Shown here: positions 4,194-19,005 of the stretch, in pieces
Numbering within the stretch: position 1 is the stretch's first letter
Layout: each line of letters begins with the position of its first letter
DNA from: a bacterium
GTDB lineage: Bacteria; SAR324; NAC60-12
Length of the DNA: 32,683 bases
NCBI GenBank assembly: GCA_965233585.1
Contig: CBDDTI010000389.1
Span: forward strand, 1 to 32,683
Direction: 5' to 3'
Notes under the pieces: model-generated
What the model was told of the DNA's origin: nothing
The model's input: only the letters and a program-made list of their open reading frames with translations
Databases searched by the model: none
Program-made: the position numbers and the translations under genes

Positions 4194-5315
4194 TCAATTG
4201 AGTCGTCCTTCTGAAGCAACCAAGGACAAGCTATCCTGGCTCAAACAAGTAGTGTTGAGGCTTCTGTTGGAGCGGCTACCTCGCAAGCAGAGCAGTGACG
4301 AACGTAAGAGGGAGAAAGAGAGGCGACAGCGAAGAAAGTTCATTACTACAGAGTAGGGTTCATTCTTCTTGTCGCTGATCTGACTCGCCAGGCGCTTGAG
4401 GAAGGTTGCTGCCTCGGGTGCAGCCCCACCATTTGTCGTGAAAACAAGCGGGGTGAACGAACCTCTCTCCACCTCTCGTACACAAAATCCGTATTCCCTC
4501 CTCTTCTGATTCTGGTGTTGGCGGTAAAGCGAGGTTAGACTGGAACGCTGATAGGTAGGCGCAAAAGGGTGAAACACCCGGACGTCAAAAAAGGCGTCTT
4601 GTCCATCATTGTTCCAGAATCCCCTCGCTTTCACATCGAGGCGAGCTTCATCTTCCTTGTTTGCGGATGAGGGAAGAGCTTCACCACTCAGAGGCTGGAG
4701 GCGAGGTTCTAGAGAGACATCTGTACACACCTCAATGAGGGCACTTGCAACCAGGTTGCGAACCTCGTTGTGCCGAAGAGTGGGGTAGCCTCCTTTCCGG
4801 CAAATCATGGCATGGTCGGCGGAGAAGGGAGCGTTGCAAACGCACTTCTCGGGGACACGTAGTACAGGCCAACCATATCGGAGTGCGATGGCATCACGAA
4901 ACTCTCCTTTATGCAAGGCAAAGCCGTGCCTCTCAAGTGGAACTGCTGTTAGCCACGCTGACGTGCCCTTTTCCTGCGCAGCTGTTGCACAGCGTTGAAG
5001 AGAAGGTGGGAGAGTGGATGTTGTGAGCAGTGCTTCCGCTTGAAGAGATGCGGCTCTTTTCTTCTCCAGTTTCTGCTTGATTCCCACCTGTTCACTCAGA
5101 GCAGCGAGCACATCTCCTCCTTGGTCTATGATGAGCTTCACAAGTGGAGAGCAAATCTCACGCGAACCGCGGAACTGCTTCTCTGGAAGGTCCGTCGGGT
5201 CGATCGCTCCGATTCCTCCAAGGCGAGCAGGGAGAAGCAGCAGCTTGCGTAAATCATCTCCAGGTGATGGTTGCCCAGTCAAGGCAGGAAGAAGACGTTG
5301 CCGGATTGCAGTTTC
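4194..5315 (-). pseudogene. C-terminal part of CRE-like retrotransposon ORF: RT thumb, CCHC zinc knuckle, restriction-like endonuclease (RT core missing)
   Basis: ETAIRQRLLPALTGQ...LLLPARLGGIG; SAWLTAVP; CVCNAPFSADHAMICRKGG; RHNEVR; EPRLQPLSGE; ARLDVKARGFW; FFDVRV; ERGSFTPLVF; LLCLRGSR. Confidence 0.85.
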
Positions 5316-5491
5316 CGTGCGAGCTGGGGTTGACTGCTTCCCTTCCCGAGCCCAAGAGGTCGATCAATTGCGGGTTGGTTCACACAACGGTCTGCACGAC
5401 ATGGATAGCAATTCGTGCAATCGGTCCCACGTTTCACACAAAAGCATGACAAACAACGTCCCGTGCTTTTACACGGGCAGCACGGAGCCAT
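5279..5491 (-). pseudogene. Cys-rich N-terminus of the same retrotransposon ORF, truncated and out of frame with the C-terminal part
   Basis: MAPCCPCKSTGRCLSCFCVKRGTDCTNCYPCRADRCVN (CXC-like Cys spacing), same strand and directly upstream. Confidence 0.6.
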
Positions 5492-6342
5492 TATTTGTAG
5501 ATTTCACGCTGTGAAGACGCGGAGATAATGCATTTTATTGGTCCAAGAACGGCAAGAAGTACGGAGTCTTTTTCTTGTCTTTTTCTTGTATTTTTTTTCT
5601 TGTAGCCAGGTACGCGCGCGTAATTACGACTCGGCTCAGCTGTCTCGAGAGGACAGTTTGAAAGCAGTGGCTCGTCTTTGCTCATTGCTCATTGAAGTTT
5701 CCGATGTCCTTGTCATGTGAACTGACTACTATACGTAACAATTAAGGGGGGACAACCCCTCATTTAGTCAAAAAAATGAAATTTGGAATTTTCAACTTTT
5801 CCTTTTGGGGGCTGTTGACAAACACCCAAACTGCGTAAAAATGAAATTTGAGGGTGATCTGACCAGTATTATGGTCACTAGAGACTTTTTTAGGACAGCA
5901 ACTACCACTCGTTTTGCCCTCACTCGGCAAGGAAATGGCTGTGGTGTGGATGGCAATCATGATGTGGGTGACAGAGGCTAGGGGGTAGTGAACAAAAAAA
6001 AAAGGGGGGACGCAACGCCGATTCACTCCGTACTGCCAGGTCTGCCTCAGCAGAAATGGCGCCCAAATTTGCCGCGCCTATCCCCACACCGTCGCGCCAA
6101 AATTTCGAAGCTTCGCGCCAAACTCGAAGCTTGGCGCCAACTGAGGTTGTCAGCAGTAGTGTTAGTAAAGAATGATCTGGCTCACTCCTTATATGGTGAT
6201 ACTATATGTCCATATATGGTAATGTGTAGTACGGGGTACGAATACGATATTTTGATACGGGTACGATATGTGTAGTACGATATTTTTGTATACGAGTACG
6301 ATATTATACGATAAAACCCTAACCGTAACCCTATTTTAAACC

Positions 6343-6511
6343 AATCACCATGGTAACCCTAACCTTAGCCTTGCTTCACCGACAATTGCTCGACATTCCT
6401 CGAAATCACCATGGTAACCTTAGCCTTGCTTCACTGACAATTGCTCGACATTCCTCGAAATCACCATGGTAACCCTAACCTTAGCCTTGCTTCACCGACA
6501 ACTCCTCGACA
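6343..6511. repeat. Three-copy 55-61 bp tandem repeat containing TAACCC-like hexamers in the left terminal region
   Basis: aatcaccatggtaacc(ctaacc)ttagccttgcttcac.gacaa at 6343, 6404, 6459. Confidence 0.9.
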
Positions 6512-6739
6512 GTCCGATCTAACCTCACCTAACTTTAACCCTAACCCCAGCGCACACTGGCCTCCTAAAACAGTGGTGACGTAAACGTGATACGAACATG
6601 TGACCGTGTCCTCCAAGGTCCGCCTCGAGAATGAGGTCTCTGGATCCACCCTTTCGATCCGACTCAACGTGCATAAAAACCGACGCTTGTCTCTCTCTCG
6701 CACTCACTTTCACCTTGGTAGCATCGTCGAAGCAGAAGA

Positions 6740-7615
6740 ATGAACATGTCACCAGCAGAGTTCGAAGAAGCATCTCCATCCAAGAGGTTTTTGAAGAGAC
6801 CTCAACGGCAGGACGACGAGGAGGTGAAAACTCCGACCAAAAAGAGACGTGTTCCTTTCGTCAAGGCGGTGGAGAAGGACTTTCAGATTCTCATCGAACA
6901 TCTCGCTCGAAAGAGGGAAGAGGAGCGGAAGAAGGAGAACTACGAGCGTGAGGAGGAGCAGTGTGTGCACGAGGGGATCGAGACGGACGAAGCCTTTGTT
7001 TGTCAACATTGCGGGTTAGTTCTTGGAAGCTTGTATGGTCCTGATGTTCATTGGTTTGACCATGCTGTTATGCCTCGTGTTTACAGCGCCAGAGATCAAT
7101 TGAACGCTGTCGACAAAGCACTGTACAAGTTCATCGACCGCATCTGTCTGCAAACGGATCTTCCAATGTACACGGTCCAAGAACGTCTTCGAGCAATGAA
7201 GATCGACGCTGGCTACAAGAGCTTGAACTACGCCATTGCCCTCAGCTGCGTACTGGAGGGAGACCATGCGGCACAAGAAGAGATTCGGCCATTCCTTCCA
7301 AAGTCGAACAATGCGTGGGCTCGATCGATGCGTTTAATGTCTCCACTGCCGGTCATTTTCTTGAAGAATTGGTTGAACAACCTGATGAGAACGTCCTCGA
7401 CTTACGTCCCACCGTCGTCTTCGCGAGATCTGTCCAAACAGCAAGAGGAACGGTTTCGAGAAAATGTCCAACGGCTCGACGAGCTTGAACGTCAAGTGAT
7501 GTACGACCTCGCTGCAACGTACGACTGCGAGCTGGACGCCGAAGACTTCCTCCGTCTGCCCACCCAACTGAAGATTGCATTGTACAAATACACGATGGCA
7601 GTTCGTTTCAAATAA
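6740..7615 (+). CDS. Polinton protein with NLS-like motif and TFIIB/VLTF3-like zinc ribbon; putative transcription factor
   Basis: 291 aa; PTKKRRV; CVH...FVCQHCGLVLG; stop overlaps AATAAA (7611-7616). Confidence 0.6.
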   Translation: MNMSPAEFEEASPSKRFLKRPQRQDDEEVKTPTKKRRVPFVKAVEKDFQILIEHLARKREEERKKENYEREEEQCVHEGIETDEAFVCQHCGLVLGSLYGPDVHWFDHAVMPRVYSARDQLNAVDKALYKFIDRICLQTDLPMYTVQERLRAMKIDAGYKSLNYAIALSCVLEGDHAAQEEIRPFLPKSNNAWARSMRLMSPLPVIFLKNWLNNLMRTSSTYVPPSSSRDLSKQQEERFRENVQRLDELERQVMYDLAATYDCELDAEDFLRLPTQLKIALYKYTMAVRFK

Positions 7616-7625
7616 ACTGTTTTAT

Positions 7626-8771
7626 TCAAATTCGATAATGTGTCATGAGTTGTGCATGTATGCGTTTGATGAGCTCGGGGGATAAGCTTTTTGAGAAATG
7701 TAGTTGACAATAGAGTTTCTGAGTGGTTGCGTTAAAGAATCTTGATCCGCCGATGTAATAGTTTGCCGTGTCGATACCATGGGCTCGAGTGAAAGGTTTG
7801 TCGTTACCCGTGTGTGTAAAAATCAATATCGAGTTGAGATAGACGAAGAAATCTCCTTGCGCATCACGCGAATAGCTGAGAACGCATTTTTTTCCAACAA
7901 TGTCTTGAATTTTCGTAGCGGTCTCTCCCAGTGCAGTGGAAAGTTTACCAGCAATCGTGCTATTTTCCACCGTAATCACTTCTCTGAGAGACGTGAACGG
8001 TTGAGCTTCTAAACCATCTGGCGATGGTGTGATTCGAAGAGTCAACCCGTCACGACCAAAGTCTCCAGGAGTATCGATGTTTACGGGAGTAAACCACACG
8101 TTCGTGGTTGGAGTTGCATTCACCTCAAACACTTGAAAAACTGCAAACGCTTTGTTGAGTTGCGAAAGAGAGGTGAAGGTGTCTCTAACGACGATGGTTT
8201 TTCCTGGACCAAGAGATGCATAATAGCGATCGTTGTCCTCGTCTCTGGAAATGTCGAGGTATGAGGTCGTCAAACGTTTACCAGAAAAGTCGAAGACGGC
8301 TCTGCCTCTGAAGGTGTTTCGATCGGTTTTCTCTATCAATTCAAATCTACTCGGGTGAATGTATACGTAGTACTGAGCGTATCGTACAATGTCGGTAATC
8401 ATGTAAAAAGGATCGAACGATTCACCACGCACTCCTTGTGGGCCTCGTGGACCTGTCTCTCCGCGTAGCGTTCCGAATTCAAACCACCCTTTGTTCGTCT
8501 TTTTGTATATTTTCATAGAGGACGAATCGACGTAAAAGTCACCGAGCTTTCCTTCGTCCACCAGCGGAGGTCGTCTTTCGCTGAGCCATCCGAAACGAGC
8601 GAGAGCTCTGTCTCTTTTCAAACTTTTCAAATCGTGAAGAACCGTATTTTCCGTATCACCATTCCCCAAAACGACCCTGACGCCTGCGACGGCTTCGTTG
8701 ATCTTGTCGATGGTCTGCGACAAATCATTGTCGGCATCGCTTTTGTGAAATTGTGTCGCCCAAAAGGTCAT
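7626..8771 (-). CDS. Putative virion fibre/attachment protein: phage tail-fibre-like motif, short collagen repeat, LamG/ConA-like C-terminal domain
   Basis: GKLGDFYVDSSSMKIYKKTNKGW-GTLRG, GETGPRGPQGVRGE, C-terminal FFVYLNS...IGGS...FSKSLSPELIKRIHAQLMTHYRI; ATG at 8771 preferred over GTG 8804; minus-strand AATAAA at 7621-7626. Confidence 0.65.
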   Translation of the reverse strand: MTFWATQFHKSDADNDLSQTIDKINEAVAGVRVVLGNGDTENTVLHDLKSLKRDRALARFGWLSERRPPLVDEGKLGDFYVDSSSMKIYKKTNKGWFEFGTLRGETGPRGPQGVRGESFDPFYMITDIVRYAQYYVYIHPSRFELIEKTDRNTFRGRAVFDFSGKRLTTSYLDISRDEDNDRYYASLGPGKTIVVRDTFTSLSQLNKAFAVFQVFEVNATPTTNVWFTPVNIDTPGDFGRDGLTLRITPSPDGLEAQPFTSLREVITVENSTIAGKLSTALGETATKIQDIVGKKCVLSYSRDAQGDFFVYLNSILIFTHTGNDKPFTRAHGIDTANYYIGGSRFFNATTQKLYCQLHFSKSLSPELIKRIHAQLMTHYRI

Positions 8772-8813
8772 GGTTACACTTGTAGGTAAATTTTTTTTCT
8801 CCACATAGTAAGA

Positions 8814-9548
8814 ATGGCTAAAGTCCTGACCGTGGTTAACAACAGCGCGGCCGTGAGCCGCGGTCTGTTTTCGTCTCGCTTCACGATGAGTCTGAAGGGT
8901 CTTGATACTCGAGCTAAAACACTCAACCTCGAGTCGGCTCAGTTTGAACTACACTTTGAGAATGTGGACAGCACGAGCAATAAATTGTACGTCTTGACGA
9001 CGGTCGACGGTAAAGCTCGACAAGAAGAGATGAGTCTTTTGACGGGTACCTACAGTGACATTGAAGATCTGATCACCGTGATCAACGAAACTTTAAAATT
9101 AGCTCAACATGCAGACATTGTATTCACGTACTCGCGACGTACGAGTCGAGTTAGCATTTCTGTAGCGCGTGGGAAAGAGGTCGTATTGAAAAAGGATTCA
9201 CCGGGACTTGTGTTGGGGATTGGAGAAATCGGAACGGAGAAGAAAATTACCGGTACTTACTCATGTCCATACGCGGTCGATCTCTCGAAAGGTAGACGGT
9301 TCGTTTTGCTTTACACTGACTTGATCGGTCCTTCGGTCGAATATGAAGAAAACGAAGACTCGCGCGTGTTGAAGGCTTTTCTCATTCAAACACTTAACGG
9401 AATCAACAATTACGTGTTCAGCAAAGACGACAAACGCCTGATGCTGCCCCACGAAAACGTGTCACAGATAACCTTTTGGTTAAAATTCAACACGGGTGAA
9501 TTAATCACATCCGGGTATCCGATCAATCTGGATCTGCGAATCGAATAA
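8814..9548 (+). CDS. Minor capsid protein (penton, single jelly roll)
   Basis: 244 aa; GTYSDIEDLITVIN, GLVLGI, VDL...LLYTDLI, ITFWLKFNTGELI follow the Polinton penton pattern; directly upstream of MCP. Confidence 0.8.
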   Translation: MAKVLTVVNNSAAVSRGLFSSRFTMSLKGLDTRAKTLNLESAQFELHFENVDSTSNKLYVLTTVDGKARQEEMSLLTGTYSDIEDLITVINETLKLAQHADIVFTYSRRTSRVSISVARGKEVVLKKDSPGLVLGIGEIGTEKKITGTYSCPYAVDLSKGRRFVLLYTDLIGPSVEYEENEDSRVLKAFLIQTLNGINNYVFSKDDKRLMLPHENVSQITFWLKFNTGELITSGYPINLDLRIE

Positions 9549-9570
9549 AAAAAATCTCTCTATAGTAACA

Positions 9571-12129
<2,559 letters not shown>

Positions 12130-12162
12130 CGAAAATTCCGCTATATAGTAAAAACAGCAAGC

Positions 12163-12858
12163 ATGGACGGAGGAGATTTGCGCACGATTCACCGAGGCGG
12201 TGACCTCAAAACCATCAGCCGTCAACATGGTGGATTTCTTGGATTGCTGAAAATGTTGGGATTGGGGGAAGTGCAAAAAGAAATGTCTGATCCGATTTCA
12301 AAGCAACATGTCATGCAACGCGGTGGATTCCCTTGGGCACTGACCGGATTGAGCTTGCTTCCAGCTCTTTTGGGTAAAGGTGATGATACCATTCGTTCCC
12401 AAATGTCAATATCACGGGACCCTGTCATGCTTCGAGGAGGTCTGTCAGTTTTACCAGCACTTACAAAAAGTCTCCCGTTAGTAAAGGACATTGCTGCTCC
12501 TCTCGCTTTGGGGGCACTTGCGAGTTTGGGTGACAACGTTGTTGACAAGATTTTTGGAGAAGGTATGAAACGGCCGAAGAAAACAAAGGTTAGGCGAACT
12601 AAGAAGCTTCGCAAGCGGAGATCACCTCGCCGAAACGTTAGGAAGTTGTTAAAACAGAAGGGGAAGGCATTTGCAAGTAAAAATCTCCGTAAAGTAGGTA
12701 GACGTTTGTTCGACGAAGTGAAACGATCGAGAAAGAAATCTATTCCGAGAAAGAGACTCGAATCCATCACGCCAAGTCCCTTCACGCAGAGGTTGAAAGA
12801 TAGCATCGAGCGTGCCACCCCTTCATCATCACATATCGGCCCTTCATTCAATATATGA
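12163..12858 (+). CDS. Adenovirus pX/pVII-like core protein precursor with multiple adenain-type cleavage sites and a basic C-terminus
   Basis: HRGG, QHGGFLGLL, QRGGFPWAL, LLGKG, LRGGL, IFGEG, then a K/R-rich tract. Confidence 0.7.
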   Translation: MDGGDLRTIHRGGDLKTISRQHGGFLGLLKMLGLGEVQKEMSDPISKQHVMQRGGFPWALTGLSLLPALLGKGDDTIRSQMSISRDPVMLRGGLSVLPALTKSLPLVKDIAAPLALGALASLGDNVVDKIFGEGMKRPKKTKVRRTKKLRKRRSPRRNVRKLLKQKGKAFASKNLRKVGRRLFDEVKRSRKKSIPRKRLESITPSPFTQRLKDSIERATPSSSHIGPSFNI

Positions 12859-13559
12859 AAATGGACTTTTACAGTTTCTTTTCGGGTGAAACTCCTACAA
12901 GCAAACCTGAATTTCACATTCCAGGTTTAGAATTGAAGCTAAAGCCGAATTTCAATGAATTAATCCCCTCCTTAAGAGGATGGGGACAGAACGTGCTATT
13001 GTTGGGCCAAAGCAATGCTGGTAAATCTTACTTTATGAAAAAGCTTTTGTAAGTGATGAGACCGAAACGATTGTATGTAATCTCCAATACAAGCGCCGAA
13101 CAATATCGACAGGAAGGAACGTTGCTCAAGCATTACAGCGTCATGCCAGAATCCTTTGACGATACGAATATCGAGCCGGAATCTTACGTGATTATTGATG
13201 ACATTAGAGTTTTAGCGCTGAAATGCGGGAGTCAAAGAGAATGTCTTTACAAGTTCTTTACCATGTATAGTCATCATTCAAAATTAAATGTTTTTTTTCT
13301 GTCTCAGAGTTTTGATAACATCAAAGACATGAAGATCAACTGTAATTTTCTTTACTTGTTTCGTTTCACTGATAAGACTAATATCAGGCGATACATTAAC
13401 ACACTGTTTGGTGGAAAGTCGATAAAGGCGAATTTGATATTTAAATTATACGAAAAACTATTGGAAAAATGTCAAAGACCAATCTTGGCTATCGATTGTT
13501 CGAGAAATTTGTATTTTACTTATTGTAATGAAAAATCCTTCAAAGTAGAGTTTGAATAA
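12855..13559 (+). pseudogene. FtsK/A32-like genome packaging ATPase split by one in-frame TAA (13050-13052)
   Basis: Walker A LLGQSNAGKS, Walker B YVIIDD, SHH and FFLSQ motifs all in one frame; ATGA overlap with the upstream stop; AATAAA at 13555-13560. Confidence 0.85.
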
Positions 13560-13606
13560 ATTCAAAACCGGTGTGTGTGTGAATGATGTTTAGAGGGTCA
13601 CGACTA

Positions 13607-13693
13607 CACGAAAAACTGCACGAAAAACTGCAGGAAAAACTGCACAAAAAACTGCACGAAAAACTGCAGGAAAAACTGCACAAAAAACTGCAG
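13607..13693. repeat. 12-bp tandem repeat CA(CG/GG/CA)AAAAACTG x7 with 36-bp higher-order structure
   Basis: Direct reading. Confidence 0.95.
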
Positions 13694-13748
13694 AATTTTA
13701 CACACTTTTTACACAAATTTACAGAAAATAATTCTCCTAAAATTAAAA

Positions 13749-14825
13749 ATGGAACATAATATTATCAGAGTTTTGTTTCGAGGGTCTCTGCCTTTCCGGT
13801 TGGAAAAAGCAGATGATCGCTCTTCCTATTTTTCTATTCCGAAATCTCACCGATTAAAAACCGTTCAGTTTATGAACAGTCAACCGCAACATATTTTAAG
13901 AAAGGGGAAAAAGTCTTGGGAAGTTATCGGTACGCTTCCGTTGAAAATGAAAGGAGGACGACAAAATAATTATCGCTCGTTTTTGAGCGGGATGAAAAAA
14001 GTCTTGTCTAACATTCCAGACCCTGAATTGAGCAATCTACCTTTGGTTGAGTTGCAAAAAATTCCTCACATTAAAAGACTCTACGAACGCTATTTCAAGC
14101 ACAACCCTGAATTAATCAATGAAAGGACTTTGACCGATCTTGTAGCATCCTCGATTTTAGGGTATGATAACAATACCGGTGCCGTTCGTGAATCAATTGC
14201 TGATGTGAGAAAAAGAAGTCGCCTTCCGAAAACATCTACGACTGCACCGTCTTTGCAAACCACGAAAGAACACGAATTTGACAGGATGCTCTTACTCATT
14301 TTTCACCGCTTTCTGTCGGAAAAAGGACTACCCGAACTATTTTTGAAAAGTTCCTATTTCCTGTTGAGACCACAATTGTTACAGCTCTTTAATGAAAACC
14401 CATCGATCGACTTTCGCGTGCGCGTTGAACAAGGAGTGGGCAATATTGAAACGGAAATCTGGCGCGATTACAAAACGCTTGTCAACGAAACTAACCGAAT
14501 GTTTTTAGCACGCTATCCTTTCGACAGCATGGCTGTCTCGGTTTTGCCTTCGACTGCAGATTTTTCATCAGCAGGTGATAAGCTTCGACACATCAAACAC
14601 CATAGTCTGACTGTTCCAGGAGCTAATCAAAAGTTTACAGACTTGCAAGACTTGACCAACATTTACACTCAAACGAATGAAGCAAAGCTTATCTCAGCCC
14701 ATCATTTCGCACATGGTTTACAAGACAAAATGACGAATGACAGTAATTTTGTACAAAGTATCTTGAAAAATCGAAGCAGATCATTTCAAAAGCTCCTCAA
14801 TATTCTACAAGGAAAATCTCTCTAA
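13749..14825 (+). CDS. Hypothetical Polinton protein (358 aa) with one MKGG adenain-type motif
   Basis: Long intact ORF ending 7 bp before the next ATG; no recognisable domain. Confidence 0.7.
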   Translation: MEHNIIRVLFRGSLPFRLEKADDRSSYFSIPKSHRLKTVQFMNSQPQHILRKGKKSWEVIGTLPLKMKGGRQNNYRSFLSGMKKVLSNIPDPELSNLPLVELQKIPHIKRLYERYFKHNPELINERTLTDLVASSILGYDNNTGAVRESIADVRKRSRLPKTSTTAPSLQTTKEHEFDRMLLLIFHRFLSEKGLPELFLKSSYFLLRPQLLQLFNENPSIDFRVRVEQGVGNIETEIWRDYKTLVNETNRMFLARYPFDSMAVSVLPSTADFSSAGDKLRHIKHHSLTVPGANQKFTDLQDLTNIYTQTNEAKLISAHHFAHGLQDKMTNDSNFVQSILKNRSRSFQKLLNILQGKSL

Positions 14826-14832
14826 GGTAAAT

Positions 14833-16242
14833 ATGGACGTTCCGCTCACCAATTTGGACATTGAACGTGCACTGAAAACGACTAAAGGATATAGAGGAGT
14901 GTTTAGCTATGATCTCCTACCGAAAGTTAACCATGGAGAATTCGCGATTGTCAATACTGACAATGTATTACCGTTGTTCGACAAGCGAGAAAATGGACAC
15001 CATTGGCTGGCAGTTTGCCGTGAACATGATAACGCTCTTGTGTTTGATAGTTTTGGTCGTTCTCTTTCTCAAATGGAGATCAGTTACAGCGAGCCGAAAT
15101 TTCAGCAATACATTTTAAACGCTTTGCCGGGATGCGCGGTGTTTACAAATACGCAAGCAATACAAAACCATGCAACTGCTGTTTGTGGATGGTATGCAAT
15201 TCTGGTAGGAAAACTGTTCTCCATGTACAAATCCATCGACCATGTTCTCGATTATCTATCGATAACTTTTTCAAACGATACGTTGGCGAATGATCGACTC
15301 GTTTTGACTGGTGGACAATGGACGGACAAACTCGCTGACGAATTGCATCGACCCAAGAGAAAGCATTTTCCGAGAAGACAAGTCAAATCAAACGGAATAG
15401 ACGAAATCTGGTCTGGAGACCTCGTTGAACTTCGTGCGTTTTCAAGACACAATCGTGGTTACAAATATTTGTTGACTGTCATTGATATTTTTTCAAGATA
15501 CGCCTGGGTCATACCACTAAAAACCAAGACCGGCAAAGAGATCACGGCAGCTTTCTCGTCAATTCTGAAAAAGTCTAAACGGATACCCAAAAAGCTGTGG
15601 GTCGACAGAGGCGGGGAATTTTACAACAAGATTTTCAAAAACTATCTGAAGCAGCAAGGAATTGATATGTATAGCACACACAATGAAGGAAAAGCAGTTG
15701 TGGTGGAACGCTTTAATAAGACTATGAAAACGTGGATGTTCAAATATTTCAGTGCAAACTCAACTCGAAATTACTTGAAAATCCTACCAGCTCTCGTGCA
15801 CCGCTACAACAATAGGAGACACCGCACCATCAAGATGACACCGCATGAAGCATCGCAGAAAAAGAACGAGGAGAGAGTGAAACGCAACATCGAAAAACCA
15901 ATGAAAGCTAAACCAGCTAAATTCAAACTCGGTGACACTGTTCGTGTATCGAAACTGAAAAATATTTTCGCTAAAGGCTACACTCCTAATTGGACCGAGG
16001 AAGTGTTTGAAATCGATCAAATTCTACCAACGAACCCAATCACCTACAAGTTAAGAGATCTCATGGAAGAAGAAATTGAAGGATCGTGGTACGAGGAACA
16101 ATTGCAGAAAACTGACCAAGACAGATTTAGAGTCGAGAAAGTTTTACGCAAGAAGAATGGGAATGCACTCGTCAAATGGTCTGGCTACCCACCCAAGTTT
16201 AATTCTTGGATACCGCTGACTGATTTAGAAAGAATTTCATAA
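14833..16242 (+). CDS. Adenain-like cysteine protease fused to retroviral-like (rve) DDE integrase with C-terminal chromodomain
   Basis: Protease H57 (GHHW), D72 (FDSFG), Q111, C118 (VCGWY); linker LTGG (158-161); integrase D196, D258 (WVDRGGEF), E292 (VERFN), KGYTPNW; chromodomain VEKVL...LVKWSGYPPKFNSWIP. Confidence 0.92.
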   Translation: MDVPLTNLDIERALKTTKGYRGVFSYDLLPKVNHGEFAIVNTDNVLPLFDKRENGHHWLAVCREHDNALVFDSFGRSLSQMEISYSEPKFQQYILNALPGCAVFTNTQAIQNHATAVCGWYAILVGKLFSMYKSIDHVLDYLSITFSNDTLANDRLVLTGGQWTDKLADELHRPKRKHFPRRQVKSNGIDEIWSGDLVELRAFSRHNRGYKYLLTVIDIFSRYAWVIPLKTKTGKEITAAFSSILKKSKRIPKKLWVDRGGEFYNKIFKNYLKQQGIDMYSTHNEGKAVVVERFNKTMKTWMFKYFSANSTRNYLKILPALVHRYNNRRHRTIKMTPHEASQKKNEERVKRNIEKPMKAKPAKFKLGDTVRVSKLKNIFAKGYTPNWTEEVFEIDQILPTNPITYKLRDLMEEEIEGSWYEEQLQKTDQDRFRVEKVLRKKNGNALVKWSGYPPKFNSWIPLTDLERIS

Positions 16243-16729
16243 CTTACATGCAAGTAAACAGACAGTTTCTAGATTTCAATGTATGATTCTGACGAGGAGA
16301 GAGATAAGGTTATAACACAATAGAAAATAGAGATTGTGTGTCGTATGATGTGTCAAAGATATATAAAACAACTGAAGAATGGATGTGTGTGTAAAGAATG
16401 GATGGGTATGTGCAAAAATTAAGTGTAAAACGTAATGGCTATGTACAAAACCAAATATAGAATGGATAACTATGTACAGAATGAACGTGTGTGTGTGTGT
16501 GTTTGCGTCATTTGTTTGTTTTCTGATTTCTTTTTCCTTATTTCTGGTTTCTGAATTCGTTGTTGTCCAATTATATGTTTTCCGTTTGTACAATCTAGAT
16601 TTTCAGAAATGAAAATCCTGTTGGTTTATTTCTATAAACTAAAATCTAAAATGCTCTCAGAGATAGTACCGATTTCTGATTTCTGATTTCCGAAATCGGA
16701 TTGGCCGCAAATCTAGCTGATCGGCTATA

Positions 16730-17007
16730 CAGCTGTTTCGACAAAGGTTGTCCCACAAAAGCGTTACAGCGTACGCCACAATGCCGAATGGTCTTATGGG
16801 TACAAAGAGTTTGGCGTTGATTGATTGAGGTTTACGATGTTTACCAACAAGAAAAGAGAAGGCATAAATAGATTTGTTTGTGATGCTTCCCTCTATGTCG
16901 CTAAAACACCTAAAGCCTCAATCAAATACCATAAACCCCCTTTACCCATAATACCTTGCGGCATTGTCGCGTACGGTTTTGTTGGACAACCTTTCTCGAA
17001 ACAGCTG
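16730..17007. mobile_element. Tc1/mariner-type MITE
   Basis: TIRs cagctgtttcga.aaaggttgtcc.acaaaa at both ends, flanked by TA(TA). Confidence 0.85.
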
Positions 17008-17097
17008 TATATACTGAAGCAAAGTGTCTTAGCTTCAGTGTATTCCCCTAAGAAGGTTAGTCCTGTCTAGCCGAAATATTGCAATTGGGCATTGATT

Positions 17098-17180
17098 TGG
17101 CCAAACGGAGTCGCAAGTAGACCCAAATTGAAAACTTGGGTCCACTTGCAACTACTTGCCGGTCGGTTTGACCAGGGCTT
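17098..17180. repeat. Short palindromic MITE remnant
   Basis: tggccaaacggagtcgcaagtagacccaa vs ttgggtccacttgcaact...cggtttgacca. Confidence 0.55.
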
Positions 17181-17223
17181 TAAGCTACATTTCATCCATA
17201 CTAAACACATACTAAACACATGT

Positions 17224-17335
17224 AGGCAGAGTACATAGGGCTTTTAGTCCTATTTTCTGCACGACGACTATGTCATGCTGATGAGGCCTCGTGTGATACT
17301 GGCTAGACCGTGGGTTGATGCTCGAGTGTGACATC
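17224..17335 (+). repeat. Truncated copy of the hammerhead-bearing repeat (keeps CTGATGA, lacks the GAAAC half)
   Basis: 17224-17288 is a near reverse complement of 18569-18631. Confidence 0.75.
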
Positions 17336-17985
17336 TTTTATATCAACAATATTTTTCCGTGAAACGAGAAATAAATGTTTAATTCGCCGTGAACCGTGAT
17401 TTTCATTATGTCTTTGTTACTTACATTGCGTGACCGTGACGTCATGGTTGATCCCTGTTATGCTGCGACAACGTGGTTGGTCTGGTTTTCGGTGACCTTT
17501 GGAAGGCCATCATTTTCATCCTCTGTTTCGTCTATTTCGACCATAATGGCGGAAGCGCATCAAGTGCGTCAGACAAGAAACCACCAAGTATAAGGCTGGT
17601 ACACTTCCTCTGAACATGTATCAGACTGCTGTCCACCGGGGAGAATGGAAGTTTGCACCAGTTGAAAGAGTAGAACAACCTGAAGTTTAAAAGGAAGAGG
17701 GAAGAGATGGCACGTCTACATCGAGGGACCCAGGAGGACGGGGGTGAATAGGTTTTCGGATCGACGGATTTGGCCTTAAAAAGCGCACGAATTGTGGATT
17801 TGTGCGATAAATCACGCGGATTCGCGAATTTTGAAAACACAGTGGATCGTGGATCAGTTGTAATTTTTGACGCGGATTGTGCCTCTTAAACGAAATTTGG
17901 ATCACAAATCTTTCTTCAGCCTTGATCGGTATGTTAATGAGTTCATCCAAATTATTTCTTTTTTCGAAAGAAGTTCATTTAAACT

Positions 17986-18326
17986 CAAATGGTGGAAGAG
18001 AGAATTAACTCTGAAGTGTAAATTAAAGTGCTATGTGAAGCCCATGAAAAACCCACTGGGCGTTAGCCCTAGTAGAGAGAATCAGGGAACCACACGAGGT
18101 AAAGAAAAAATTCTTTTGACCTCAGTGGGAGTGGCAGAGTAACGGTAGATCTAATCTGGAGGTCGTGGGTTCGATTCCCACCAAGGTCAAAAAAATTTTT
18201 TCTTTACCTCGTGTGGTTCCCTGATTCCCATTACTAGGGCTAACGCCCAGTGGGTCTTTCATGGGCTTCACATAGTCGTAGCACTTTAATTTACACTTCA
18301 GAGTTAATTCTCTGTTCTACCATTTG
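17986..18326. repeat. Inverted pair of tRNA-derived SINE segments forming a long palindrome
   Basis: Arms ~17986-18130 and ~18176-18326 are reverse complements; B-box GGTTCGATTCC at the centre. Confidence 0.8.
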
Positions 18327-18540
18327 TGTTCATAGTGCTACGCGGCACAATATTCATATGTACCCTCATTTAAACTCAGGTGTGAGACTGTTATTGGAAT
18401 TGTATCGTGTTGTTGTCATCAAGCATGTAGCCTTCGTTACTATTTGGATGAAATTAACAATGCCATTCACATGTAACAACGACAAAAGCAAGTGACAGTA
18501 CCTTACACATGCGCACAGCCATATCACCTGGGCAGTGGCA

Positions 18541-18585
18541 GCCATGGACAACTGTTTCGGCCTTGATAGGCCTCATCAGCATGGC
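18541..18585 (-). ncRNA. Minimal type I hammerhead ribozyme in a retrozyme/Penelope-like repeat
   Basis: Minus strand reads GCCAUG CUGAUGA GGCCU-AUCA-AGGCC GAAAC AGUU GUC CAUGGC: stem I, full catalytic core, stem II, minimal stem III, GUC cleavage triplet. Confidence 0.85.
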
Positions 18586-18899
18586 ATAGCCGTCAGGCAG
18601 AAATAGGACTAAAAGCCCTATGAAGTCTGCCCTTTACTGCCCTCCAGGAGACGATCACCCCCTCCAAGAGACGATCAGCTCTTCGAATATGATGACGACT
18701 CCGAAAACGACTCTGATGGTTTTGTAGTGGAGGAAGATGGTGCCATTCGTCATATGCAGAGCGAGGAACTCGGTTTCCTCTTAGCATCGCGCAGAACACG
18801 AAGTGGACGGAAAGTGACAAGAACTAGGAAGGTTTTGCTTTGGACGTAATTTTTCAAAATGTAACGGTATATAACTTTTGGTTAAAGAAAAACGTTTTT

Positions 18900-19005
18900 A
18901 TTTTTTTCCGTGAAGCGTGGAATGCCTATTTTATTTTTCGTGAATCGTGAAAGGACCATTTTATTTTCCGTGAAACGTGATCTAGATCCCCCATTTACCA
19001 CCCTC
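18900..19005. repeat. DNA-transposon end with CCGTGAAACGTGA subterminal repeats; related motifs at ~17355-17450
   Basis: Repeated ttttccgtga(a/c) motifs in both regions. Confidence 0.55.

Follow-up and report, generated by a model that had tools for sequence, protein, structure and literature searches.

A conserved protease–integrase fusion in a Polinton-like (MELD) element, with a predicted adenain-type cleavage site at the domain boundary

One reading frame in the window, by which we mean the whole 32,683-nucleotide stretch analysed (contig CBDDTI010000389.1 of assembly GCA_965233585.1), joins an adenain-type cysteine protease to a DDE integrase. Both active sites are conserved, and the boundary between the two domains coincides exactly with a conserved adenain-type site. 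We interpret the fusion as real, conserved and, judging from comparative sequence analysis, probably self-processed. We consider it likely that the product is a precursor of two enzymes from a Polinton-like (MELD) virus that became endogenous in an animal genome; this precursor would be packaged as one protein and cut by its own protease activity.

The fusion ORF (14833–16242, plus strand) is a single stop-free frame of 469 aa (54.8 kDa). The protease domain (14833–15303, plus strand) is of the adenain type (C5, clan CE), as indicated by Pfam PF00770, comparison with 1avp, a structural match and its relatives, and the rve DDE integrase with its C-terminal chromodomain (about 16147–16233) occupies 15316–16239 of the same strand. 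Pfam placed Peptidase_C5 at residues 33–135 (E 1.3e-4, above the cut-off), rve at 191–280 (E 2.5e-12) and Chromo at 439–467 (E 4.2e-5, just under the cut-off). The protease-domain profile lined up with adenovirus adenain 1avp at the His, acidic, Gln and Cys motifs (E 0.002), and the clan CE hallmark, a His-Asp/Glu-Cys triad with an oxyanion Gln, is present in the protein (plus-strand codons for H57 at 15001, D72 at 15046, Q111 at 15163 and C118 at 15184). The integrase residues D196, D258 and E292 are encoded at 15418, 15604 and 15706 (plus strand). The N-terminal half matched the Terrapene adintovirus adenain structurally (E 8.6e-9), and the integrase fold matched foamy virus IN (E 1e-16); overall, the N-terminal half resembles adintovirus and adenovirus proteases, and the integrase half resembles foamy-virus, mavirus and MELD integrases. 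Frame, Pfam matches and residue positions thus bear out the initial annotation, which had described an uninterrupted ORF with a complete protease and a complete integrase-chromodomain. Its placement of the junction was likewise correct, as L158-T-G-G161 is encoded by nt 15304–15315, giving a predicted cleavage site LTGG↓Q (15304–15318, plus strand) that is identified by sequence motif. LTGG is the sole (M/I/L)xGG or xGxG site in the 469-aa protein. Also as claimed, the integrase has no start codon of its own, since the first Met past the junction, M279, lies downstream of D196 and D258. The predicted mature integrase has 308 aa, a mass of 36.7 kDa and a pI of 10. A structure model contained two folded regions separated by residues 160–177 (pLDDT < 50), with a helix at 150–159 that takes in P4 and P3 of the site.

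The fusion is neither an assembly error nor a single-copy accident. Read support over the junction, a check proposed in the initial annotation, came from bridging contigs of two studies: one in run X1 (14637–15371, 0 differences), which may be the source sample, and one in run X5 from another study (13663–15473, 9 differences). Listed pieces from run X4 fall 31 bases short of bridging the junction, and run X7 has no cover there. Of the 14 further members listed for the window's 90% cluster, 13 have the same junction. The window does sit in a prokaryote-labelled assembly with many animal-like contigs, as an assembly error might suggest, but bridging in two studies and the existence of dozens of fused clusters, some with more than 200 members, make it extremely improbable that misassembly or a copy-specific deletion created the fusion.

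Relatives of the protein retained the fused arrangement across a wide range of divergence. Thirty-four of the 120 listed homologues span at least 94% of the query at 41%–98% identity, and the frame across the junction stays open over this range. Searching with profiles of each half, we found protease followed by integrase in one chain in 48 of the best 270 matches, query included; the match lists were ranked by similarity, so this fraction is no frequency. Across these 48 fused proteins, the protease H/D/Q/C were retained in 46, 48, 47 and 48, respectively, and the integrase D/D/E in 48, 46 and 46. The initial annotation named two separate ORFs in the closest relatives, divided at the junction by a stop and an ATG, as evidence against the fusion; the closest relatives are fused. 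The protease-only search, which needs shared words and detects close relatives only, returned 25 shorter relatives of the protease half, 11 of them near full-length and the remainder fragments. All 11 extend into the linker or the beginning of the integrase, or into apparent shifted frames of these, and they read like truncated or frameshifted fusion copies. Five broken clusters of the window's own lineage, hereafter group 1 (P0371, P0372, P0374, P0375 and P0377), have an apparent frameshift in or near the linker Gly codons that leaves a near-complete protease, which we attribute, as the probable cause, to decay or to sequencing errors within G runs. One group-1 cluster includes a member assigned by name to the calcareous sponge Sycon ciliatum. 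Among 92 loci, 37 had a protease, fused in 4 of them. Protease-alignment and 358-aa-protein scans of the genome and viral contig collections found no group-1 locus, with one distant match (L093), and the phage collection gave no match; the one metagenome scan was made with integrase motifs.

The composition of the linker suggests that it behaves like a selected adenain site. Adenain cuts (M/I/L/N/Q)xGG↓x and xGx↓G, and the mavirus protease cuts GG↓X and GX↓G (Born et al., PMC6048507, available text). The strict form with M, I or L at P4 was present in 31 of 35 anchored group-1 linkers, compared with expectations of 0.8 from the rest of the proteins and 3.0 by shuffling. Shuffling with glycines fixed gave a mean of 8.6 and a maximum of 19 of 35 in 1000 shuffles, and among group-1 proteins with less than 70% identity the strict site occurred in 13 of 16 (4.0 expected, maximum 9); these shuffle controls ignore the relatedness of the proteins. 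The cleavage motif that the initial annotation saw at this one junction thus recurs in most linkers of the lineage. We note that P0053, which carries MGGG, could not be anchored and was left out of the linker counts. The strict sites comprise 19 of the xGG↓x and 12 of the xGx↓G form (for example, LTGA↓G, IVGS↓G, MEGK↓G, LEGA↓G and MNGR↓G), with Gly at P1' wherever P1 is not Gly. P4 lies 4, 5, 6, 7 or 10 residues past the ND motif of the last protease helix; because this spacing varies, P4 tracks the glycines, with the caveat that at offsets 4–5 the hydrophobic residue might belong to the protease's last helix and is confounded with packing. The four group-1 linkers without M, I or L at P4 have V (twice), T and S (once each). 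GG/GxG was present in 7/7 linkers of group 2 (strict form in 3/7) and in 5/5 of group 3 (strict form in 0/5), and linkers range from about 13 to 53 residues.

The predicted cut also appears to fall where stand-alone integrases start. The predicted product, Q-W-T-D-K-L-A-D, starts 8 residues ahead of the ELH motif, and 29 short-leader integrase matches begin with a Met 3–12 residues ahead of ELH; predicted stand-alone integrases begin M-R-W-T-D-K-L-A-D, like the predicted cut product. The core-like and 358-aa proteins encoded nearby in the element bear the same adenain-type sites.

Genes around the fusion are of a viral kind. A Zn-ribbon (CxxC) protein (6740–7615, plus strand) is common to the group-2 fused element L015 (L015:9435–10004; 30% identity over 124 aa, E 8e-14). 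It is followed by a gene with a short collagen-like stretch (7626–8771, minus strand), which we take from its sequence to be fibre-like and which has a homologue on contig C273 of the same assembly, and by a gene that we presume from position only to encode the penton, or minor capsid protein (8814–9548, plus strand; no significant Pfam match). The DJR major capsid gene (9571–11130, plus strand) had an ESM Atlas feature score of 0.97–0.98 to Preplasmiviricota/DJR clusters, a lead without an alignment. Its 3' end is interrupted by an insertion (11130–12125, minus strand) that has a TTA tail and carries an ORF of 257 aa (11337–12110; no Pfam match), presumably a truncated LINE. Next come a basic 231-aa precursor (12163–12858, plus strand) that we assume to be a core protein, in which 7 of 8 GG/GxG motifs match the adenain consensus, and a probable packaging ATPase (12855–13559, plus strand) with the Walker-A-like GQSNAGKS and an in-frame stop at 13050–13052; the ATPase has no Pfam match, so its label rests on motif and position. 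With its capsid gene interrupted and its ATPase stopped, this copy is defective, and the fusion is intact. A 12-nt tandem repeat (7.5 copies, 13603–13692) lies between the ATPase and 358-aa genes, and repeats of this type recur near 13760–14179 and 16599–17063 in the related element L094 on contig C273. L094 (10881–17063) is a rearranged, decayed relative with 67%–69% nucleotide identity, in which a deletion has brought the beginning of the protease up against the fibre gene, and in which the 358-aa gene is duplicated.

The gene for the conserved 358-aa protein (13749–14825, plus strand; 44 homologues) lies directly upstream of the fusion ORF. Its M-K-G-G at residues 67–70 (about 13947–13958) falls in a disordered loop of the structure model, and the site fits (M/I/L/N/Q)xGG in 23 of 24 aligned relatives. 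No family was found for this protein (Atlas top score 0.78, no Foldseek match under E 0.001, best VIA Z 5.3), and these absent matches do not make its fold new. Homologues of this protein and of the fusion lie on contigs of matching length, which suggests that this lineage-specific gene stays next to the fusion gene in relatives. The fusion gene is preceded by the motif AAAATCTCTCT...TAA (14813–14832, plus strand), common to the major capsid gene and present in looser form before the genes at 8814 and 12163. In these four plus-strand genes, an A/T run, CTC-rich sequence and AG-TAA lie 7–16 nt before the ATG (8795–8813, 9551–9570, 12135–12162 and 14813–14832), and the motif could be a shared late promoter or splice acceptor.

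The initial annotation called the element a Polinton, a label that part of its gene content fits. The C5 protease, the rve integrase with chromodomain and the DJR capsid agree with it, but PolB is missing from the contig (21 matches to PF03175 in the assembly, none on the window's contig or on C273; the window copy may be truncated), and no inverted match beyond chance joined 4801–6800 to 16201–17400, where terminal inverted repeats were sought. There is no long ORF at 4800–6740 or 16242–19000, no replicase was found in the window, and the group-2 contig L015 (10 kb, cut off) has no ORF long enough for PolB. Because no PolB or terminal repeats were found and the sole virus-named match among the 120 listed homologues is a MELD virus with separate genes, Polinton status is not established; the element is Polinton-like (MELD) and works like a Polinton module. 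Repeats of 55–61 nt with telomere-like CCCTAA units at 6310–6520, just left of the first viral gene, are a possible element end. Farther out, a tyrosine-recombinase ORF (207–1334, PF00589) probably belongs, we assume, to a DIRS-type retroelement, and a flanking exon weakly resembles a sortilin-related receptor (E 0.04). The assembly is 92% complete, prokaryote-labelled and 12 Mb in size, with many animal-like contigs bearing Polinton integrases and PolB pieces, which we regard as host contamination of the bin.

As we envisage it, the precursor would be made along with the structural genes and enter the assembling capsid undivided. LTGG↓Q would then be cut by the protease of that molecule or, more probably, of a second precursor molecule, as would the sites in the core-like and 358-aa proteins. 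This would leave an 18-kDa protease and a 37-kDa integrase with an N-terminus like that of stand-alone integrases. Once the next cell is reached, the released integrase could insert the genome. Fusion would set a 1:1 ratio, with one packaging signal serving both enzymes. Linker and motif comparisons make it likely that the element's own protease cleaves the linker. That cleavage occurs in maturing particles after joint packaging is reasonably probable by analogy, because mavirus virions contain both the protease MV16 and the integrase MV02 (PMC6048507, available text). Particle formation by this lineage is assumed, given the broken capsid and ATPase genes and the absence of a replicase among the genes found.

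Other readings of the linker and the long frame account for parts of these data. A permanent two-domain protein, with the Gly motif as an uncut flexible hinge, would suit a linker that is modelled at low confidence and varies so widely in length, and groups 2 and 3 mostly lack M, I or L at P4. However, a hinge gives no reason to expect either a hydrophobic P4 that keeps step with the glycines or the alternation of xGG↓x and xGx↓G, and an active protease whose neighbouring proteins carry like sites should also cleave an exposed one here, so we regard this reading as unlikely. We give a similarly low probability to a regulatory cut, in which one enzyme stays inactive or confined until the precursor is cut in the cell, and the products may be packaged apart or not at all. 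Adenain activation requires DNA and a peptide of the pVIc type (PMC8537868, available text), the basic integrase half could tether the protease to DNA, and integrases of this family often have removable-looking N-terminal modules (GG/GxG before the core in 18 of 29 long-leader integrases); the position of the gene among virion genes and the upstream motif common to the capsid gene fit a virion role instead.

It is very unlikely that an internal start or a spliced RNA yields a separate integrase and that the long ORF is incidental. Many relatives do have a Met at P4 (MVGG, MEGG, MEGKG) that is a possible start, but the window's protein and nine other fused proteins (P0030 unscored) have no Met from the protease core to the first catalytic Asp. 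The window also has no AG dinucleotide at 15209–15355, and thus no splice acceptor able to open the integrase at the linker, and the frame stays open in relatives as noted above. No slippery heptamer was found at 15151–15420.

Co-packaging followed by self-cleavage, the reading we prefer, probably concerns an arrangement that is recurrent across related virus lineages, to judge from phylogenetic placement. In a quick tree, fused proteases formed three groups (SH-aLRT 99, 95 and a 97 clade mixed with unfused proteases). The data did not reject a single clade of all fused proteases (59 of 83 rows after removal of near-copies, AU p=0.068). For the integrases, a single clade was rejected (AU p=1.5e-7), and groups 1 and 3 as one clade were weakly rejected (p=0.02; both from 67 of 129 rows hand-picked after FastTree, LG+G4, unrooted). 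Group 3 appears to be the clearest case of separate origin, as it nests among elements with a protease followed by a PLA2-integrase: its proteases group with those of L048, L063 and L092, and its integrases fall beside the long-leader ones of L048, L055 and L092. PLA2 was confirmed by Pfam in L048, L063 and L092 and not in L055, and in those loci the protease gene overlaps the start of the PLA2-integrase gene. If the PLA2 domain were lost, the protease would become fused at an existing GxG site, and P4 of that site is usually Lys both in group 3 and in PLA2-integrase elements. The module swap with PLA2 that the initial annotation raised thus gains support from trees and gene order for group 3, a fused lineage other than the window's. 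P0033 combines a group-2 protease with an integrase near group 1, and a single fusion followed by fissions or integrase exchange may instead account for the pattern. The group-3 fusion P0125 is extended at its N-terminus by about 190 aa that include a C2H2 finger, and in many unfused elements the order is reversed, with the protease directly after the integrase (L016, L017, L021, L023, L024, L036 and L057). A broader picture, which we hold tentatively and at slightly below even chance, is that a protease was joined at least three times independently to integrases whose Gly-based N-terminal site takes PLA2 or protease, that the self-releasing precursor couples capsid maturation to integrase activation, and that the lineage is perhaps replicase-free and helper-dependent.

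Among known systems, the Trichoplax MELD virus (TPA BK012064) is the only virus-named match among the 120 listed homologues, and its integrase is 55% identical over 311 aa to that of the fusion. The available text of Starrett et al. 2021 (PMC8502044) describes it as having no PolB and encoding an SF1 helicase. Unlike in the window, its protease and integrase are separate proteins, and its integrase leader has I-T-G-F-G ahead of the core. Its listing in the available part of the PMC11071296 supplement gives Integrase, Adenain, GasderminX, Hexon and Penton in sequence, an order that mirrors, by eye, the fused element L015. Polintons/Mavericks (adintoviruses) share with the window the C5 protease, rve integrase with chromodomain and DJR capsid, and, to judge from motif and position, probably the ATPase and penton; their PRO and INT are separate genes in the source text available, and the window is without detected pPolB or terminal inverted repeats. 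Adintovirus PLA2-integrases are already annotated (e.g., Adinto15303_PLA2-Integrase, PMC11071296 supplement, available part) and attach an N-terminal module to the same integrase by way of a GxG motif, but the module is a phospholipase, not a protease, and P4 is mostly Lys (KLGLG); the strict adenain site occurs in 1 of 29 long-leader integrases. Mavirus MV16 is a clan CE protease that cuts at GG↓X and GX↓G, like the predicted site here, but MV16 and MV02 are separate genes, with no fusion or integrase processing reported in the available text of PMC6048507. In retroviral and LTR-retrotransposon Pol, a protease likewise frees a DDE integrase from a shared precursor. The fusion differs in having a cysteine rather than an aspartic protease, no RT or Gag, and only C5, rve and chromo in 469 aa; the likeness is an analogy rather than a sign of shared descent. 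This virus group has further protease fusions, namely vOTU within pPolB (PMC11161782, available text) and Hexain and Cahain (PMC11071296, available text); these involve a different protease (vOTU) or partner, and none involves an integrase.

We found no description of a protease–integrase fusion in the open literature searched, including the available text of PMC8502044, PMC11161782, PMC11071296, PMC6048507, PMC3671162, PMC11131425, PMC8537868, 10.64898/2026.10.13.758929 and 10.1101/2023.08.22.554363; an earlier annotation of the fusion may exist. In the available PMC11071296 supplement proteins, 27 ELHKP and 8 ELHRP places, seen in short contexts, included none labelled or visibly protease-integrase and two labelled PLA2-integrase. 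The same literature, as far as its text was available, described no animal Polinton protease substrate or virion integrase. One protein here holds an enzyme together with its predicted substrate, making Polinton-type maturation testable with one small gene. Recurrence of the fusion suggests that protease-gated integrase delivery is a general rule in these viruses. It would offer a clear-cut example of convergence with the processing of retroviral polyproteins and, if true, a DNA-virus parallel to retroviral Pol built on an unrelated protease.
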